Sequence record: PZ386980.1
Source of the DNA: a phage
DNA length: 64,000 bases
Direction: 5' to 3' (one strand)
How positions within the stretch are numbered: position 1 is the stretch's first letter; every line of letters begins with the position of its first letter. The notes beneath the pieces are model-generated. The model was not told where the DNA came from. It worked only from the letters and a program-made list of their open reading frames with translations, and did no database searches. Position numbers and translations under genes: made by a program. Shown here in pieces: positions 16,799 through 61,439 of the stretch.

Positions 16799-17038
16799 TC
16801 ACGCTTTCTTAGCGACTTTCCAGTCAGCTTTAAATTGGTCAACGTCAGAGTGATGAATCCAGAAACCAGATGAGCTACCATCTTCATAAAGAGGACAACC
16901 ATCACACTCATCTTCCCATCCCATATCACGTAAAAGATGTTCAGCTTTTTCAATGAGTTCAGAATCTTTACCGATGATATTAAAATACCATTTACCTCTA
17001 ACTTCTGAATCTTTGATGCTCTGGCGTTGTAATCTCAT
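16799..17038 (-). CDS. hypothetical protein (79 aa)
   Basis: track ORF trimmed to ATG 17038 with GAGGAG RBS; early promoter 17065-17094 just upstream. Confidence 0.5.
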   Translation of the reverse strand: MRLQRQSIKDSEVRGKWYFNIIGKDSELIEKAEHLLRDMGWEDECDGCPLYEDGSSSGFWIHHSDVDQFKADWKVAKKA

Positions 17039-17064
17039 TTTATTCTCCTCAAGTTGATAGGGTA

Positions 17065-17094
17065 ATAGTATCACACTACTACCCTGTTGTAAAC
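17065..17094 (-). promoter_or_regulatory. T4-type early promoter
   Basis: minus strand GTTTACA-acagggtagtagtgtga-TACTAT; 27 nt to ATG 17038. Confidence 0.6.
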
Positions 17095-17096
17095 AA

Positions 17097-17357
17097 TTAT
17101 TTTTGAATTTTATCGAGCCACTTACCAAGCTTAATCATTTCTTTAGTAGCCTTTTCCATACTTCTGAACTTAACCAATAGAGGATAGGTATCGACACCCA
17201 TAACTAAACTGGTTACAAGACTGTGTTCACCCACAAGCCATAACGAATACGTTTGAATATCGAGTCCGTAATTTCTGTCTTTATGGACCCGTACACCCAT
17301 CACTTCAAATTTCTCACTAGCTTTTTCTACCGCATCCAGGAAATCATCTTTAGTCAT
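17097..17357 (-). CDS. hypothetical protein (86 aa)
   Basis: track ORF trimmed to ATG 17357, 1 nt after upstream stop; start uncertain (alternative 17399). Confidence 0.4.
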   Translation of the reverse strand: MTKDDFLDAVEKASEKFEVMGVRVHKDRNYGLDIQTYSLWLVGEHSLVTSLVMGVDTYPLLVKFRSMEKATKEMIKLGKWLDKIQK

Positions 17358-17358
17358 A

Positions 17359-17745
17359 TTAGGCCTTAAAAGTTTTTCGCAAAAGTTCAATGATTTCATC
17401 TACATTGTTTTCGTCAACAATGCAGTGAATTTTTGTTACGCCAGAAACTATACCTTCATTAGCGGATTGAGGCTTTTCTAAAGTTACCTCAGTAAAGTAT
17501 TTGAATTCTTCAGAGTAAATCTCAAAATACGTCTCAAGTGGGCCACCCGCCATGTATTCAGTACCATCTTCCATAGTTACACGTACCACACATTCACCAG
17601 CACAATCATCACTTTCCATTTCATCTACAACAAAACTAGGTCCGTGCTTCTCTATTAAATTTAGCATCATTACATTGCAACGGCACTCGTTAGCAAAGTC
17701 ATTTTTAAATAAAGGGTTAATGATATAAGTTTTTCCAACTTCCAC
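17359..17745 (-). CDS. hypothetical protein (128 aa)
   Basis: track ORF; apparent GTG start with GAGGAA RBS 6 nt upstream. Confidence 0.5.
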   Translation of the reverse strand: MEVGKTYIINPLFKNDFANECRCNVMMLNLIEKHGPSFVVDEMESDDCAGECVVRVTMEDGTEYMAGGPLETYFEIYSEEFKYFTEVTLEKPQSANEGIVSGVTKIHCIVDENNVDEIIELLRKTFKA

Positions 17746-18168: not shown

Positions 18169-19077
18169 TTAAAGGTCATTCAAAAGGTCATCCAGGTCCG
18201 TGTCATCAGCACTAGATGAACTACCAGAGCTTGAGCTCATAAAATCATCTTCAGTTTTTGTATTGAAGTCATCAACATTGAATGCATCCAAATCATCAGC
18301 AACTTTATCAGCTTTCTTAGCAGCAGTTGCAGCGGCACCGCCCATCACAGCAGTTCCCATAACTTGACCGAATTTAGTATTCAGTTCTTCAAACGATTTG
18401 AATTTATCTTTAGAAGTCATTTCAGAAAGGTCAACCATTTGTTCGAACAGTTCTTTCTGGAAAGATTCATCGTCAATGTTTGGAATCGCAGATTGATTCA
18501 GGAATTTAGATTCGTCGTAGTTACTAAAACCAGAAACTTGTTTAACTTTCAGTACAAAGTTAGCACCTTCCCACGGACAAGTTACATCAACCGGAGTTTC
18601 ACCCATTTCAACATCAACTGCAATCATTGCATTGATTTTATCCCAGATTTTCTTACCGAAACGGTATTTAAATACTTTACCTTCATTTTCTGGAGCAGCT
18701 GGGTCTTTTACTACAAGAATGTTAGCCCAGTAAGAAGTTTTACGTTTAACAAGACCGTACTCTTTATTGTCAGTGTTGTATAAATCATTTTTACTGATGT
18801 ACTGACATACTGGGCAAGAATCGTAATCACCGTGGGTAGATGAACAGTTTTCAATATACCATTTACCATTTTTCTTGAAACCGTGATTTACAAGAATTGC
18901 GAATGGTGCTTGTTCATCATTTTTAGACGGAAGAAAACGAATTACTGCTTGACCGTTACCCGCATTGTCGAGTTTCAGTTTCCACTCGCCTTTATCTTCA
19001 GAAGAAAAACCACCTTTATTTCCAGCCAGTTTAGCCATTTGTGCAGCGAGTTCAGCAGTAGATTTACGTTTAAACAT
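18169..19077 (-). CDS. 32: gp32 single-stranded DNA-binding protein
   Basis: 302 aa; [37 protein letters not shown].. and acidic Ser/Asp C-terminal tail; matches recalled T4 gp32. Confidence 0.95.
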
Positions 19078-19160
19078 TTTTATTTCCTTTTTAATTTAAT
19101 TAACAGTTGGTGCTATGACGATGTATGACCTCATAGCTGGTCAGTGAGATAATTATAATT

Positions 19161-40249: not shown

Positions 40250-42427
40250 TTAGGCCGCAAGGGCCTTCATAGTTTTAGCGATTTGGGAAACTTCATCATC
40301 ACTTAAAGAGTTGCGATATCCGATGAAGTCGGAAACAATACGGAATTTCTTGGTAAACTCAGCAACCATTTTATCACTATTTTTTGAAGCATTATTTGAT
40401 AATACATCAAAAAGATTAGTTACTGTCCAGATATCATGACCGATGGTATCTTTTCCACCATTAAAATATACACCGCGCAATGAACTAACTATATTAGCGA
40501 GTCGTGTATATTCTTCAGAAACTTCATCTGTACTGAAGTACTTCATCATAAAATCTAGCTCAGGATACTTGATAATTTTATCAATATATCGTTGAGCTGA
40601 ACTTGAATAACCTACATACTTATCATAATCTACATCATCAAAAGCATCTATATATAAATCACGCAAAGCTTCAAAAATACATTGGCACTGACCGAGTTCT
40701 TTTACCTTTTTCTGTAAAAGCGGACGAATAACATAAAATTCATTAATGCCAATAAGATTAGCCATACGAATCAAAATATTCATAGATGGATGACAAAGAG
40801 ATGTAGTACCATCCATAGAGAAAATATCAGAACGATGCATATACGCTACATAACCAGTAATTTCATCTGCTTCTGACGTAAGTGTAAATAGTTCCTCTTT
40901 TTCCCATCGCCCATCTTTAATTTCAAATTTAAATGCTGTAGCAGCTTTAGGACGAGGAGCTTTACTTTTAACTACCTTTGGAATATAGCTTTTAACTAAA
41001 TTTTCAATTTCTGACAAATAATGAATGTTAACTTCATCACTTTCAAACATTGCCATAATATCAGGTAGTAAATCAATCTGCGATTCTACTTCCGGATTAA
41101 TAAACAGAAGACGCTCATTGTGATGAATATTCAAAGTGTTATTAAATTCACTATCATCTAACGCGTGTGCTAATCCACGGACAATATTAACACGATTTTT
41201 AATATTATCAATAACGATATTAATTTTTGTTGTATTAATACCAAACAGACGATAACTTGATGCAACGGCTGAAGTTTCATGACTTTGCTTAATGCGTTTC
41301 AGTCGAGGGTCAAGATTTACTTCATACACCACGCCTGCATTACATAACTTACTGTCAGGTTCAAACATGCTCTGCATCTTTTTATATGACAGATTTTTAG
41401 TCGTGAATTTGACTGAATTACTAATCATATAATCTCGAGCAGAATACCCCATCTTCATCAATTCACGATATGTGTGACGGGGAGATGTTGATTCTTTAAA
41501 TCGTTTTACATCTTCATTAAATGCTTTCTCACTGAGTTCTTTAACTCGTTCAATAATATTTTTACGAGTACGATCATCCAGCGAAAGAGCCTCGCGAGAT
41601 GGAGCAATATCAAGTGAACCCATTGGAAACTTAATGTAATTCACTTCATTGCGAATGCTTAGCCAGTTACGGTCTCTAATAACACCATCGATAGGATAAA
41701 CAATACCGCCATAGATAGCATATAATCCACCACGATCTGGCCAGTATCTTTCTGGATTTACGCCATAATAATCATCAAAATCCGGAAAATAATCAATTTC
41801 GCGGTCAAGACCATTAATGATAGCCAAATCTTTGAACGGTCGCATGATATAAGAAACTTCATAAGCAAAGTTTCTAAAGTCTTTTTCTTCAACTGGAACT
41901 ACGATTTCAATACCAGTTTTATCATCTGGACCCATTTCTTTTACGAATGTAGGTTTAATCTGTGGGCCATCACCATCCATGTAAGCTACATAACCACGAA
42001 TTTCACCTTTATGATACGAAGTAATACTAAACGTATCAGTATAACTAAACGGAGATTTAGAACCTAAACCAAATCCGCCAATGAAATCGTTAGATTCAGC
42101 TTTAGATGAACTGAAGTATGAATTATACAAACCAGGAGAATTATCATCACCCTGAATATCAAAATCACTCATACCCGGACCAAAATCTCGGCAAACAAAT
42201 CGTGGATCTAAACGTCCAGGAACTTGAATGATAAATTTTTCAGGATTTCCATTGAGAGCATGGGCATCAATCATGTTGGTAATCAATTCACGGACTACTG
42301 CGCGAATTTTGTTTGTATACAAATCAGACGACAGAATTTTAAATACTTTAGGAGATGCTGTGATGCTAAATGCTTTTGATTTAGAACCATTACCAAGAAT
42401 TGTTTCTTTTTCAGTGGTGATAATCAT
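40250..42427 (-). CDS. rIIA: RIIA
   Basis: 725 aa; matches recalled T4 RIIA ([30 protein letters not shown]..). Confidence 0.95.
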
Positions 42428-56734: not shown

Positions 56735-56758
56735 ATTATACAATAAATATATAAAGCA
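56735..56758 (-). promoter_or_regulatory. MotA-dependent middle promoter candidate upstream of gene 56
   Basis: minus strand MotA box aTTGCTTTAt then 11 nt then TATAAT; about 35 nt upstream of gene 56 ATG. Confidence 0.5.
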
Positions 56759-56771
56759 ATAAGGAGGACAT

Positions 56772-56972
56772 ATGGTACAAAAATTAATGGCACTTGTTAA
56801 TGCCATCAAAGGTAATAAAAAGCGTATAGCTTTTACTATTTCTGCTATGGTAGGAATTTTACTCTGGAACTTTATTTTATCACCAATTGCAATTGCGCAT
56901 GGTGTTAATATTCCAGTAGTTACTCTTGATACATTTGTAGATTTAGCATTTGCTTTAGTTGGGTTAATTTAA
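56772..56972 (+). CDS. small membrane protein (66 aa), plus strand
   Basis: AAGGAGGA RBS at 56761-56768, ATG 56772; two hydrophobic segments; convergent with gene 61. Confidence 0.5.
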   Translation: MVQKLMALVNAIKGNKKRIAFTISAMVGILLWNFILSPIAIAHGVNIPVVTLDTFVDLAFALVGLI

Positions 56973-57997
56973 ATCTTAGCATATTTAGATAACCGCATTT
57001 TAGCCATCAACCCCTGTGCAATATTATTTTTCATATATTCCATAATTTGTTCAGGGGTTGCACCTTCCTTTCTAATCATATCATTAACATCTTTTGATTT
57101 CCAGGGAGATTTATCCCAAAACATAACCCTTTCTCCTGCATCAACTAATTTAGTCATTCGTTTGATAGTGTCAGGGTGACGAGGTTCATTATCTAAAACC
57201 CACACACGTCTATCTTTAAATGGAACAACTTCTAGGTCTAATTGACCACCTGTAATAGCTATACCATTTTCAATAAAAAGTGAATCTATAGGTCCTTCTA
57301 GAACATATACATCACCATCTTTAACTCGTTCGACTCCATAGATTTTTGTTGCTTCAGGATAAGCTTTGATAGTGATATATTTTTGGGGAGCATCTTTCTT
57401 TAATGCACGTCCTTGAAAAGACTCGGCTTTTCCATTAGCATTATAAATTGGAATAACAAGACGAGGCTCAGAAATTTCCTTTTTGTATGTTCCCGGTGCT
57501 ATGCTATTAACTAATTTAGGCCATTCAGTTGTAAACCAAAGATATTTCCATTTATCCTTTGGAATACAACGAGCTTTTACATATTTTATAATTGGATGGT
57601 CTTCCGCCAGTTTATCTAATCTAACACATGACGGAAGAGATTTAATCATTTTCTTCTCAGGTTGTTTAGGAAGTTCTTTAGGTTTTTCTACTGGACGACT
57701 TTTACCTTTTTCTTTTCTTATTTCAAAGATATACTCACGATATAAATCAGGTTCAAACTCCTTTAAATATATTCCGATTGGTGCATGATAGTTACAGTTA
57801 TAACAATGAATATTTCCTTCATTATTATCACCATAATACCATCCACGAGCTTTATTCTGGTCGGTTTTTGAATCTCCGCAAACAGGGCATCTAAACCGTA
57901 ATTTAAAAGTTGAACTATTATTTACTTGTGTGAATTTAGGTAAATGAGCCAATGCACGATACGCAAACTCATTATCAATCCAAGGTATTGATGACAT
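56969..57997 (-). CDS. 61: gp61 DNA primase
   Basis: 342 aa; zinc-binding CPVCGDSK..HCYNCNYH; matches recalled T4 gp61. Confidence 0.92.
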   Translation of the reverse strand: MSSIPWIDNEFAYRALAHLPKFTQVNNSSTFKLRFRCPVCGDSKTDQNKARGWYYGDNNEGNIHCYNCNYHAPIGIYLKEFEPDLYREYIFEIRKEKGKSRPVEKPKELPKQPEKKMIKSLPSCVRLDKLAEDHPIIKYVKARCIPKDKWKYLWFTTEWPKLVNSIAPGTYKKEISEPRLVIPIYNANGKAESFQGRALKKDAPQKYITIKAYPEATKIYGVERVKDGDVYVLEGPIDSLFIENGIAITGGQLDLEVVPFKDRRVWVLDNEPRHPDTIKRMTKLVDAGERVMFWDKSPWKSKDVNDMIRKEGATPEQIMEYMKNNIAQGLMAKMRLSKYAKI

Positions 57998-57999
57998 TT

Positions 58000-58164
58000 T
58001 TACTCTTCTTTTTCTTTAGATTCCTCTTTTTTCTTTTTAGGAATCTGTTCAGGACCTTTATTTACTACAGCACCTGATGTTGTTCCAGTAGAGATATTTT
58101 CAGGATTACCACCTGAATCTCCAGCTACCATATCTTCTTTAATAAATTCTTTATATGTTTTCAT
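58000..58164 (-). CDS. hypothetical Lys/Glu-rich protein (54 aa), not in ORF track
   Basis: MKTYKEFIKEDMVAGDSGGNPENISTGTTSGAVVNKGPEQIPKKKKEESKEKEE; fills the gap between gene 61 and the next ORF. Confidence 0.4.
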   Translation of the reverse strand: MKTYKEFIKEDMVAGDSGGNPENISTGTTSGAVVNKGPEQIPKKKKEESKEKEE

Positions 58165-58210
58165 ATTAACCTCTATTCATAAAAGCATTAAAAATTTGGT
58201 CATCAATAGA
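58162..58210. repeat. 49-bp direct repeat, copy 1 (gene junction module)
   Basis: catattaacctctattcataaaagcattaaaaatttggtcatcaataga; 3 mismatches to copy at 58520-58568. Confidence 0.75.
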
Positions 58211-58522
58211 TGGAATAGCAACCTTTTCGGCATCATTTAGCAAATCATTAATTTCATCAGATAACATAACACATGTGCCTTTATTTCCTGTAATTGTTAC
58301 TGCACAATTACGAACGTTTTCTTTATCAAATTTTAGGTTAATATTTTCGTAGTGAAAATCCTTTAATGCCGAATATATCTTTAAAATGAAATTGTCTTTT
58401 ACTACAATAAACCCAACCTCACTATTAAAACATGGTTCATGGAAACTGTAATAAACCTTTTCATCTATAAAATCGTATGAAATTTTTTCCATTTTTAAAT
58501 ATGAAAATTCAGAACTATACAT
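58166..58522 (-). CDS. hypothetical protein (118 aa), shared C-terminal module
   Basis: track ORF; C-terminus SIDDQIFNAFMNRG shared with next ORF. Confidence 0.5.
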   Translation of the reverse strand: MYSSEFSYLKMEKISYDFIDEKVYYSFHEPCFNSEVGFIVVKDNFILKIYSALKDFHYENINLKFDKENVRNCAVTITGNKGTCVMLSDEINDLLNDAEKVAIPSIDDQIFNAFMNRG

Positions 58523-58568
58523 ATTAACCTTTATTCATAAAAGCATTAAAAATTTGATCGTCAATAGA
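58520..58568. repeat. 49-bp direct repeat, copy 2 (gene junction module)
   Basis: catattaacctttattcataaaagcattaaaaatttgatcgtcaataga. Confidence 0.75.
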
Positions 58569-59165
58569 AACATTTACTTTAGACTGTTCTTCAAACGGTA
58601 ATTCATATCCACATATTACAATTTTGTGATCGATACCAAAATACACAGAAGCAATATGATTAATATTATTTTCAGTGAAATCTAAATCAACATCAATATC
58701 TTTTTGACTAACGCTCAAAGGATAATTAATACGAATAATTCGATTATCTTTAACAAAGATTCCACCGACATACTCTGTGTTGCGTTTAAAGTTTACACGT
58801 TTCCTAAATGAAAAATATTCAGGTTCTTTATGAGCCCGACTCATAGGACACAATGAGTAGCTAGAATAAGAGATGTCAAATCCTACACCTTCAATATGAG
58901 CCAACGTGTCATGATTAAACCAATTATAATCATATGCCAAATCCATTATATTGTAATATGTGAAAGGCACCGGATTAACATCATGTGTTGTACCTTTAAA
59001 ATCTGCCCAGGCAACGATTTCGTTATCTTTAACAATTACAAAAATTGTGCCAATAAGATATCCACGGTTATTTTCATCAGGCGTTATATTATAACATTGC
59101 GCATCAGGAAATTTACCGTATTTAAACGGTGGATTTTTGTGCATATAATAAATCATATTATTCAC
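58524..59165 (-). CDS. hypothetical protein (213 aa), internally duplicated, shared C-terminal module
   Basis: track ORF; two VKDN-containing segments (FVIVKDNEIV, GGIFVKDNRII) and C-terminus SIDDQIFNAFMNKG. Confidence 0.5.
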   Translation of the reverse strand: MNNMIYYMHKNPPFKYGKFPDAQCYNITPDENNRGYLIGTIFVIVKDNEIVAWADFKGTTHDVNPVPFTYYNIMDLAYDYNWFNHDTLAHIEGVGFDISYSSYSLCPMSRAHKEPEYFSFRKRVNFKRNTEYVGGIFVKDNRIIRINYPLSVSQKDIDVDLDFTENNINHIASVYFGIDHKIVICGYELPFEEQSKVNVSIDDQIFNAFMNKG

Positions 59166-59451
59166 CTGTGATTTCGGTTACGATATTTTTGTTATTAAAG
59201 TTTTTATCGCAATACAGAACATAATTATACTGCATTACACCACCAGACTTAAGTTGTTTTTGCACTTCAGCTTTCATTTTAGGACGATCGCGCTCAACAA
59301 TATTCATAATATCCGCTTCAATTTGAGTTTCAACTTCAGTCTGATCTGCAGTCATAGACCATTCACACAAGTCTTTATCATATCCTGCCATAGCAGGCTG
59401 AGCAGCACAAGAAGCCAAAGTAAAAATTGTAGCAAAAATAAATTTTTTCAT
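59158..59451 (-). CDS. sp: Spackle periplasmic protein
   Basis: 97 aa with signal peptide; MKKFIFATIFTLASCAAQPAMAGYDKDLCEWSM.. matches recalled T4 Sp. Confidence 0.85.
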   Translation of the reverse strand: MKKFIFATIFTLASCAAQPAMAGYDKDLCEWSMTADQTEVETQIEADIMNIVERDRPKMKAEVQKQLKSGGVMQYNYVLYCDKNFNNKNIVTEITGE

Positions 59452-59511
59452 GATAATCTCCTCAGTAGTTTATGTTTATATAGTATCTCAATTTCCAACA
59501 AAAGTAAACAG

Positions 59512-59811
59512 CTATTTTAAAACTTCTGCGTAATCACATGTTACAAACTGTTTCTCTAGCTTAACGATTTTACGAAAATACCTTTTATACTGACGAATCT
59601 GCCTCTTCGTAGGACGTACAGCAAACTTAATAAATTCCACTCGACCAAATGGAGGACTTTCTTCTGCTGGAATATCTAACACCAATTCCCATGTATCCGC
59701 AATAAGTGCTTTGAATTGAGTATTTTTCCTGACGTTATACGGAGTAGGTTTAAATAAAACAATATGCATATTATCCTCGGCAATCCACTTCGCACACTTT
59801 CTTGTCATCAA
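59512..59811 (-). CDS. hypothetical protein (99 aa), position of T4 61.4
   Basis: track ORF; 5' end overlaps dmd 3' end, true start may be internal. Confidence 0.45.
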   Translation of the reverse strand: MMTRKCAKWIAEDNMHIVLFKPTPYNVRKNTQFKALIADTWELVLDIPAEESPPFGRVEFIKFAVRPTKRQIRQYKRYFRKIVKLEKQFVTCDYAEVLK

Positions 59812-59953
59812 TGAAAGCTTTAACTAATGCTTTATTAACTTCAGCATATTGAGTAGTAGCCCATTGAACGTCATCTTTCATCATTGTGATTTCTTTAGTA
59901 AACATGCTTTCATTCTTAAACCACCCCATAAAAACTACCTTTACCAATTCCAT
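59771..59953 (-). CDS. dmd: Dmd antitoxin-like inhibitor of host RNase toxins
   Basis: 60 aa; MELVKVVFMGWFKNESMFTKEITMMKDDVQW.. matches recalled T4 Dmd; early promoter 59983-60012 upstream. Confidence 0.8.
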   Translation of the reverse strand: MELVKVVFMGWFKNESMFTKEITMMKDDVQWATTQYAEVNKALVKAFIDDKKVCEVDCRG

Positions 59954-59982
59954 AACAATCTCCTCATTTAACCAACAAGACT

Positions 59983-60012
59983 ACTATACCATAGTCTTGT
60001 CAGCTTGTAAAC
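59983..60012 (-). promoter_or_regulatory. T4-type early promoter upstream of dmd
   Basis: minus strand GTTTACA-agctgacaagactatgg-TATAGT; -10 sits inside a 9-bp inverted repeat 59975-60000. Confidence 0.6.
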
Positions 60013-61439
60013 TAAAATTTTAATTCATTTGCCAAAGCATCTAACTGAGCTCGAGCTGATTCATTTCTTTGATAGCGATTCTGTTCAGCCTGAATCTGTT
60101 GTGAACCTGCTACTTCACTCACTTCGGTTGGAGTAGAATCTTGTTCAATTTCTACCCATTTTTGATTTCCTTTTTGAACACCCATCAAAAACTTATTCCA
60201 CTTATTCTTATCACCATATCGTGATTTGATTTGCTTAATAAGTTGTTGTTCAGCAGCTGCTAGCTCCTCGGTTTCAATGACCGCAAGCATAAAATCAGCT
60301 GTTGCTGGAAGACCAGCAGATTCTGCAATATCGCTCATGTTAACATCGGAAGAGTCCCAAGCTTGTTTACCGACCTGTGCTGCAGTCCAAAGAACAGTTT
60401 CGGTTTCAACAGCCAGAGCACGCAATTCCTCTGCGATAGCTTTAACAGTTGTGTAACTATTTTCTGAATAAACTCTAATGCGGCAAGATTTACAAATACC
60501 TAGATAGTCGACAATAATGATTGTTGGAACAAAATTCTTTTTGAGCTTTAATTCATTTAAAAGTGATCGAAATGTATTAGCGTCTGCTCCACCAGTAGGA
60601 TATTGCTTAACGATTAAACGACCAAGGGTAGATTTCTCACGCCATTTTTCCATTTTTCCTTTATATTCAGCGTAAGAAATATGCCCATCATCAATGTCAT
60701 CAAGAGAAACATCAAGCATGTTAGCGTCAATACGCTTAGCACAGACTTCTTCTGCCATTTCCATGGAAATGTAAAGAACATTATGTCCGAGCTGTAAATA
60801 ATCTGCTGCTAATGAACACAATCCTAATGATTTACCAACGTTAACGCCAGCCATTAAAACGTTCAGTGTTCCAGTTTCAGCTCCGCCTTTCGTAATTTTG
60901 TTTAGAATTCTGAGTTTAAATGGAACTTTACGAGCTTTATTCATATAAGATAGCCAGCGTGCTTCGTAGTCATCCATCCAATCATGACCAACGTAGCTAT
61001 CAAATGAAATTGATAATGCTTGACGCATGATGTCAGGAATAGCACCAACATCCGGCATTTTCTTATTTCGTTTTTCCGGAGGAAGCTCAGCATTAGTTTG
61101 AATTTCGATTATTTTAGACGTAGCATTAAACATCGCCCTTTGCTGAACATATTTTTCTGTTTCTTTTACTAACCAGCTGTGGTCTTCTGGAGAATCGGCT
61201 AGTTTTGAAATAAGTGTTTTTACACCAGAATATTCCGTTTCAGTAAATGAACTATTTTCTAATGCAACATTTAACGCATTAATAGATGGAACGCTATGAT
61301 ACTCATTAACATGAGATTTAATTAATTTGAACGTATTTTTAGCTGGACCACTTTCAAAATATTCTGAATCCATATATGGCCAAACTTTTGAAAAATAAGC
61401 TTGATCAAATATAAGATGAGAAAGAATAATTTCTACCAC
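60012..61439 (-). CDS. 41: gp41 replicative DNA helicase
   Basis: 475 aa; Walker A GVNVGKS; matches recalled T4 gp41. Confidence 0.95.
   Translation of the reverse strand: MVEIILSHLIFDQAYFSKVWPYMDSEYFESGPAKNTFKLIKSHVNEYHSVPSINALNVALENSSFTETEYSGVKTLISKLADSPEDHSWLVKETEKYVQQRAMFNATSKIIEIQTNAELPPEKRNKKMPDVGAIPDIMRQALSISFDSYVGHDWMDDYEARWLSYMNKARKVPFKLRILNKITKGGAETGTLNVLMAGVNVGKSLGLCSLAADYLQLGHNVLYISMEMAEEVCAKRIDANMLDVSLDDIDDGHISYAEYKGKMEKWREKSTLGRLIVKQYPTGGADANTFRSLLNELKLKKNFVPTIIIVDYLGICKSCRIRVYSENSYTTVKAIAEELRALAVETETVLWTAAQVGKQAWDSSDVNMSDIAESAGLPATADFMLAVIETEELAAAEQQLIKQIKSRYGDKNKWNKFLMGVQKGNQKWVEIEQDSTPTEVSEVAGSQQIQAEQNRYQRNESARAQLDALANELKF

Follow-up and report, generated by a model that had tools for sequence, protein, structure and literature searches.

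The interval between the DNA primase gene 61 and the helicase gene 41 in phage DNA of sequence record PZ386980.1 (positions 58,000 to 59,953 of the 64,000-nucleotide stretch analysed here, hereafter the window) is the phage RB51 version of an already published island of anti-toxin genes in T-even phages. We consider it highly probable that this island carries tandem genes of the anti-DarT factor A (AdfA) family, and that a 49-bp direct repeat at the ends of these genes is a combined module of protein tail and middle promoter P61 which marks the gain and loss of gene cassettes. Phages RB51 and RB68 (genus Tequatrovirus) give a 100% match to a 2.2-kb region of the window, with the RB51 record being circularly permuted relative to it. 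The two family members are adfA and, between adfA and gene 61.1, an open reading frame (ORF) of 118 amino acids, here called the short gene.

A repeated module of tail codons and promoter signals

The repeat lies at 58162-58210 and 58520-58568. Its copies are identical at 46 of 49 positions with a spacing of 358 bp, compared to at most 35 matches for the best 49-nt window in 100 dinucleotide-preserving shuffles of 57900-60100. Both proteins have the same 14-residue C-terminal end, SIDDQIFNAFMN(R/K)G, and the module reads TCT ATT GAT GAC CAA ATT TTT AAT GCT TTT ATG AAT AGA GGT TAA T ATG on the coding strand. An earlier note on this DNA had reported both the repeat, with three mismatches, and the common tail, and our data agree. 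The elements of the module and the adjoining genes are listed here.

58000..58164, minus strand: gene 61.1, 54 amino acids, with a Lys/Glu-rich C-terminus (ORF, annotation, phrog_1823)
58166..58522, minus strand: the short gene, 118-amino-acid ORF RB32ORF033c, phrog_4122, assigned as a single-domain AdfA paralogue (Pfam, phrog, RB51 annotation)
58524..59156, minus strand: adfA (gene 61.2), anti-DarT factor A, 210 amino acids (PF23813, annotation, literature)
58162..58210, minus strand: repeat copy 1, at the short gene/61.1 junction, P61 module and last 14 codons of the short gene
58181-58190, minus strand: copy 1 MotA box, TAATGCTTTT
58169-58180, minus strand: copy 1 12-nt spacer, ATGAATAGAGGT, with a GAGG ribosome-binding site
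58163-58168, minus strand: copy 1 −10 element TAATAT, made up of the stop TAA, a T and the AT of the 61.1 ATG
58520..58568, minus strand: repeat copy 2, at the adfA/short gene junction, last 14 codons of adfA
58539-58548, minus strand: copy 2 MotA box, intact
58527-58538, minus strand: copy 2 spacer, ATGAATAAAGGT
58521-58526, minus strand: copy 2 −10 element TAATAT

Three roles overlap in the repeat DNA, namely those of tail peptide, middle promoter (predicted in RB51) and the ribosome-binding site, stop and start at the passage to the next gene. The two Asp codons and the spacer (AAAGG for AGAGG) account for the three mismatches of copy 2 against copy 1, so that MotA box, hexamer and spacer length are the same, although with only three mismatches their placement outside box and hexamer is not statistically meaningful.

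In T4, the middle promoter P61 has been mapped to a start site at 19122 (original source Marshall, Sharma and Hinton 1999, as listed in PMC2988021), and middle promoters follow the consensus wwwTGCTTtA at 12 ± 1 bp from TAtaaT (PMC2988021). As gene 61.1 of T4 (NC_000866) is the complement of 18966-19130, P61 transcription starts 8 nt inside 61.1. The T4 hexamer TAATAT, at −12 to −7, comprises the adfA stop codon, a single T and the AT of the 61.1 start codon, with TAATGCTTTT positioned 12 nt upstream. Copy 1 of RB51 has the T4 P61 sequence over all 49 nt: its MotA box agrees with 9/10 of the consensus, the spacer is 12 nt long, and TAATAT fits TAnnnT. Copy 1 is thus, judging by sequence, orthologous to the mapped T4 P61.

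Scanning the window for TGCTT-N13-15-TANNNT gave 25 matches against 13.8 expected, and both repeat copies were among these on the correct strand, each in the form TGCTT-N14-TANNNT. The MotA-type pattern was also seen at 40368-40391 and 40622-40646 (minus strand), the sites expected for the mapped promoters PrIIB2 and PrIIB1 (T4 starts 122 and 377), as well as at 56735-56758. In the Lutter record, a 27-nt promoter, AATGCTTTTATGAATAGAGGTTAATAT, was annotated as a prediction by its authors at both copies. We infer that both copies act as promoters in RB51, with predicted transcription starts at ~58156 for copy 1 (8 nt inside 61.1) and ~58514 for copy 2 (inside the short gene). P61 transcripts start beyond the ATG of 61.1, so that this promoter serves gene 61 but not 61.1, and copy 2 could in the same way serve 61.1 and 61 and not the short gene. 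Overlap of a −10 element with a start codon may recur in T4, as its promoter Pdam (17617) also starts 8 nt inside a coding sequence, that of dam (16846-17625), like P61.

The short protein has both the tail consensus [SA][IV]DDQIFNAFM[NK][RK][GD] and the expected gene position directly downstream of sp or adfA. AdfA-family genes were found directly downstream of sp in every genome examined. The same tail is present on at least five types of protein body: AdfA (208-216 amino acids), the 118/119-residue form of Tequatrovirus and Gaprivervirus, a 145-residue form in Dhakavirus and Gaprivervirus, and metagenomic forms of 120 and 125 residues. As a peptide it is invariant across four genera. Between genera, the proportion of synonymous differences (pS) in the tail is 0.65 and the ratio of nonsynonymous to synonymous change (dN/dS) is 0.04, with synonymous changes reaching even the Ala codon in the MotA box (GCT, GCC, GCA) and the −10 element (TGATAT in JS98). 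Fixed amino acids combined with changing codons indicate that selection acts on the tail peptide itself. The promoter is an additional constraint at the DNA level, clearest for copy 1 in Tequatrovirus, where copy 1 is nearly invariant while copy 2 is more variable, with one mismatch in RB32 and a changed last residue in RB18. A sliding-clamp-binding motif was also considered for the tail, given the position of these genes between primase and helicase, and was dropped due to a poor fit.

The identity of the two copies could instead be a sign of recency and not of function, the repeat being mainly the footprint of a recent duplication or gene conversion. Such an event would suit the single mismatch between the copies within RB32, the 38/39 identity between two different families at a Gaprivervirus locus (L012), the GAT/GAC variants common to both copy positions in different genomes, and the Asn-to-Lys change common to both Gaprivervirus paralogues. 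However, the bodies of the short protein and AdfA are only ~35% identical, showing that the duplication behind the pair is old. The tail peptide is also invariant where the DNA differs at synonymous sites at the pS given above, and copy 2 of phage Ac3 has clearly diverged. The elements of promoter, ribosome-binding site, stop and start account for some of the synonymous identity, and the ~8 free synonymous sites are too few to tell conversion from constraint or from codon-usage differences between genera. As copy identity owes much to sequence constraint, it need not reflect a recent event, and we regard this explanation as improbable.

It is more doubtful still that the tail is kept only for P61 and the translation signals, with the peptide arising only as a by-product of translating regulatory DNA. 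The last 28 nt of the module are indeed taken up by MotA box, spacer, ribosome-binding site, stop and start, the near invariance of copy 1 against a variable copy 2 would be expected, and the last 12 codons of adfA are still present in the published T4 deletion of this gene (61.2 delta 65-196; PMC11257639). Across genera, however, it is the amino acids that are fixed and the codons that change, even in the MotA box and −10 element, as the low dN/dS of the tail at high pS reflects. In addition, no promoter element reaches into the upstream half of the tail (SIDDQIF), and the gene that comes after the tail in other genera is not 61.1.

Cassette polymorphism and probable recombination at the repeat

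Junction-specific searches of a phage collection with ~500 Tequatrovirus records distinguish four configurations of the island. The counts given here are approximate, as they include duplicate GenBank/RefSeq records and rest on subtracting the counts of BLAST-joined matches.

Type A: 61.1, short gene, adfA, sp; ~158 records, including RB51, RB32, RB18 and Lutter
Type B: 61.1, short gene, sp; ~141 records, including T2 and G4500
Type C: 61.1, adfA, sp; ~168 records, including T4 and G9062
Type D: 61.1, sp; ~31 records, including RB3 and RB9

Gene 61.1 is kept in all four configurations, and in type B the short gene directly follows sp. In genomes of the T4 type, the match to a 501-nt probe is 143 bp long, 358 bp short of the full probe, showing that exactly one repeat unit is absent. 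At the T4 junction, AdfA-side context on the 5′ side gives way to copy-1 sequence on the 3′ side, the outcome that crossing over within the repeat would produce. A single species includes both G4500 (type B) and G9062 (type C), whose cassettes differ, and cassette type is not tracked by flank similarity. These data support shuffling at the repeat. T4 is known to rearrange this locus by recombination at short homologies (PMC9391042), and we infer that cassettes are in fact gained and lost by recombination at the repeat.

The earlier note had proposed recent recombination or shuffling and had suggested aligning the interval across T-even genomes to see if the repeat marks a breakpoint. We see that the repeat does coincide with the boundary of a presence/absence polymorphism, that synteny is not invariant, and that the repeat is not identical in all relatives. 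Shuffling is thereby upheld, by the four configurations and the 358-bp unit, whereas recency is not, as constraint explains much of the identity. Broken copies of adfA, together with the type B and D genomes, suggest that this gene is often dispensable.

In the arrangement that we propose, the island runs from an early promoter driving dmd and tifA through sp, adfA, the short paralogue and 61.1 to 61. The tandem pair of RB51 consists of two-domain AdfA and a 118-residue paralogue of its C-terminal domain, with all family members ending in one amphipathic tail of 12-14 residues. In Tequatrovirus, the tail DNA also contains P61, whose MotA box lies in the codons for Asn, Ala and Phe and is separated by a 12-nt spacer from a −10 element formed by stop and start, and it holds the translation signals at the passage to the next gene (ribosome-binding site, stop and start). 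Where family members with a shared tail module stand in tandem, a 49-bp direct repeat results. Homologous recombination in the repeat and the conserved flanks during co-infection could then remove, add or swap cassettes and so give rise to the four configurations.

Several points weigh against this proposal. The promoter role of copies 1 and 2 in RB51 is a prediction, and the downstream ORF cannot be translated from a transcript that starts 8 nt within it, which calls the benefit of a second copy into question. Copy 2 of Ac3 carries ~7 mismatches and its MotA box is eroded by synonymous changes, so that retention of copy 2 as a promoter is not universal. Whether deletions or insertions took place is not decidable from the data. 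Nor are the type B and D junctions after sp simple products of the obvious microhomology; they keep only the 13-nt element TAGAGGYTARTATG, with the MotA box absent. A crossover at a common TGAATA was tried as an origin for these junctions and rejected, since it predicts GGTGAATAGAGG and the observed sequence is GGTGAATAATTAGAGG.

The short gene and the AdfA family

The 213/210-residue protein matches the AdfA profile PF23813 over its full length, with residues 4-213 on profile positions 1-211 and a score of 457 bits (cut-off 27). The short protein scores 33.2 bits against the same cut-off and covers positions 129-211 of 211 only. It also matches phrog_4122 (2e-72), and the RB51 annotation of its gene, RB32ORF033c, reads "similar to gp61.2". 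With the tail removed, its body is homologous to the C-terminal half of AdfA (z = 4.8, 1/2000 shuffles); we relied on this shuffle test because hhalign of tail-less sub-alignments was weak for every pair. The two-domain architecture of ~210 residues is absent from the short protein. Its AlphaFold model (mean predicted local distance difference test score, pLDDT, of 80.8) shows a compact single domain with five strands, helix, strand, helix and then the tail helix.

The short ORF is intact, at 117-119 amino acids, in every locus examined, and dN/dS is 0.18-0.33 for its body and 0-0.04 for its tail. The gene is found in ~299 phage records, T2 included, which is ~60% of Tequatrovirus genomes, and Gaprivervirus has orthologues of the protein at 47% identity. 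The short ORF is a real gene, and on this evidence its product is classed as a single-domain paralogue of the C-terminal half of AdfA, under purifying selection. That it is a decaying, functionless remnant of a partial adfA duplication is very unlikely: it does span only half of the AdfA profile, and family genes are often lost or broken (none in type D, AdfA fragmented in Elenatom, fragments in protein libraries), but the intact reading frame, the low dN/dS, the ~141 records including T2 in which it is the sole family member, the Gaprivervirus orthologues and the compact, confidently predicted fold all speak for a maintained protein.

The 213-residue protein had been noted earlier to look like an internal duplication of the 118-residue fold. 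By sequence, the shuffle test of this for AdfA was not significant (z = 1.9) and hhalign was again weak. In the AlphaFold models, AdfA (pLDDT 71) has the order of five strands plus helix twice, and the VKDN motif occupies the same hairpin, between strands 3 and 4, in the N half of AdfA, the C half of AdfA and the short protein. The predicted structures are thus suggestive of an internal duplication.

Word-indexed protein searches returned close relatives only (5 clusters for the short protein as query, 16 for AdfA), and an exhaustive profile search of 1.84 billion representative proteins gave 10 proteins, all being T-even members of the AdfA family or fragments of these. No relative was detected in the PDB by sequence (nothing below E = 0.37) or by fold, and a fold search of BFVD matched the short model to a 157-residue protein of Yersinia phage fPS-65. 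AdfA was seen in fragments in Elenatom (L033 766-1282) and in many metagenomic gene calls (P0022, P0024, P0026, P0027, P0029), and in T4 strain GT7 the adfA ORF is intact and merely unannotated.

His at residue 164 of the RB69 protein is the allele that neutralises DarT1 (PMC11257639). His167 of RB51 AdfA (NINHIAS, in the 210-residue numbering) aligns with the Arg of the RB69-type protein at this position, so that RB51 AdfA is predicted to carry the DarT1-neutralising allele. In the helix that holds the specificity residue, the short protein reads ENVRNCAV and AdfA NNINHIAS.

Membership of an inhibitor family, location in an anti-toxin island, purifying selection, and a retained specificity helix with changed residues are the grounds for supposing that the short protein inhibits a toxin and has a target other than that of AdfA, an idea that is plausible but to which we give slightly less than an even chance. 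Telling against a role like that of AdfA, the short protein has Asn where AdfA has the specificity-determining His, and T2, which carries the short gene, is reported to be DarTG1-sensitive when lacking adfN. The latter implies that the short protein does not neutralise the studied DarT1 at its native level, and it is probably inactive against this toxin.

A broader and distinctly tentative idea is that the AdfA family is a modular inhibitor system, in which interchangeable, fast-evolving recognition domains are mounted on one invariant C-terminal helix that would perform a common step, for example docking to a conserved partner or site. The domains would be those of AdfA (208-216 amino acids) and of the single-domain forms of 118, 119, 120, 125 and 145 amino acids. 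The DNA for the helix would serve as a portable promoter, translation and recombination cassette for swapping domains by homologous recombination, and the short paralogue would neutralise another toxin or a DarT variant.

The island, its neighbours and known systems

The earlier note placed six ORFs between genes 61 and 41 and took the interval for an accessory island of host-interaction genes, with its unrecognised ORFs as plausible counter-defence factors. The six ORFs are indeed present, all on the minus strand, although two lengths needed correction. The mechanical adfA ORF (58524-59165, 213 amino acids) starts at an upstream GTG, compared to an annotated ATG at 59156 that gives 210 amino acids. 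The mechanical tifA ORF (59512-59811, 99 amino acids) is an extension from an upstream TTG, and its annotated ATG at 59769, directly after the dmd stop, gives 85. The island character is confirmed by the literature, where 61.2 is AdfA, an inhibitor of DarT (PMC11257639), 61.4 is TifA, an inhibitor of ToxN, and Dmd is an inhibitor of RnlA; the stretch has been called a possible "anti-TA island" (TA, toxin–antitoxin; PMC9391042; Srikant, Guegler and Laub 2022). The 213- and 99-residue ORFs had therefore already been named, and only 61.1 and the short gene are uncharacterised in the island. Its remaining features and flanking genes are the following.

56969..57997, minus strand: gene 61, DNA primase, served by middle promoter P61 (ORF, RB51 annotation)
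59158..59451, minus strand: sp (spackle), periplasmic protein (PF25676 152 bits, annotation)
59512..59769, minus strand: tifA (gene 61.4), ToxN inhibitor, 85 amino acids (DUF7279, T4 identity, PMC9391042)
59771..59953, minus strand: dmd (gene 61.5), RnlA/LsoA toxin inhibitor (PF17587, T4 identity)
59983..60011, minus strand: sigma-70 promoter-like site of early type upstream of dmd-tifA, with TTTACA, 17 nt, TATAGT and a TG
60012-61439, minus strand: gene 41, helicase (gene table)

TifA scores 72.4 bits against DUF7279 (PF23945, cut-off 24.5), and Dmd (156.9 bits, PF17587) and Spackle are likewise above the cut-offs of their profiles. The dmd-tifA pair is driven by an early promoter (PMC9391042), and in the Lutter record a promoter is annotated at the same place as our early-type site. 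Protein identity between RB51 and T4 is 96% for 61.1, 74% for AdfA, 92.8% for Sp, 97.6% for TifA (85 amino acids) and 100% for Dmd, making AdfA, by this sequence measure, by far the fastest-evolving member of the island.

Some further observations concern the surroundings of these genes. The leaders of sp and dmd (59446-59464 and 59948-59966) have a common 19-nt ribosome-binding-site/start region, TGAGGAGATTNTNATG on the coding strand, at 84% identity. The dmd-to-tifA junction, CGAGGATAATATG, has a protein end RG followed by stop, T and ATG, a design as in the AdfA-tail junction. Between genes 56 and 61, on the opposite strand (56772-56972, plus strand), RB51 has a hydrophobic ORF of 66 amino acids, RB32ORF030w; in T4 this interval is occupied by the dam methyltransferase gene. 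Expansions of the island in other genera take other forms: two 61.4/TifA-like genes are present in VR7 (L004 2048-2269 and 3425-3721). A metagenomic relative (L028 871-1491) has an HNH endonuclease gene between 41 and dmd. In the Mosigvirus JK42 (L007 1820-2287) the primase-adjacent gene encodes 155 amino acids, and its C-terminal part corresponds to the 54-residue gp61.1 (phrog_2086 match). What is now gene 61.1 may thus be left over from a longer protein, or be its core.

Earlier work had already described the island, AdfA, TifA, Dmd, Sp and P61. In the literature searched we found no description of the half-size AdfA paralogue, which is also present in adfA-less phages, of the tail on several bodies, or of the four-state polymorphism, and no mention of the P61 promoter lying in a conserved protein tail. 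As phages scored adfA-less, such as T2, still hold the half-size paralogue, tables of anti-DarT presence and absence and knock-out designs are incomplete. The last 14 codons of adfA or its paralogue overlap P61 and the translation signals of the next gene, meaning that their deletion or recoding can alter expression of 61.1 and the primase, and the second P61-like copy may shift expression timing in RB51-type phages. The 49-bp module is a ready substrate for homologous recombination, and offers a testable route for the gain, loss and exchange of anti-toxin cassettes. Our findings extend a known island and family and do not overturn current understanding.

The short protein resembles AdfA in its C-terminal domain, its invariant tail and its place in the genome downstream of sp, but it is without the N-terminal domain and has Asn instead of His/Arg at the specificity position. 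Copy 1 of RB51 is the same as T4 P61 in sequence and position, including MotA box, 12-nt spacer and TAATAT over stop and start, whereas RB51 has in addition a second, predicted copy 358 bp upstream at the adfA/short gene junction. The PeSL mobile regulatory cassettes of T4-type phages (Arbiol et al. 2010, PMC2839356; PMC4122927) resemble the RB51 repeat in being boundary-repeated regulatory sequences in a variable region, at the edges of insertions, deletions and replacements. They are, however, intergenic early promoters with a stem-loop, whereas the RB51 module is of middle-promoter type and lies inside coding sequence, and a search of 57900-60100 found no terminator-like stem-loop. Finally, the genes of the T4 anti-TA island (dmd, tifA and adfA) and their order between 41 and 61 are the same in RB51, which has one additional AdfA-family cassette, and in RB51 the homology available for rearrangement is a functional module of 49 bp and not the chance microhomology of 2-10 bp at which the T4 island rearranges.

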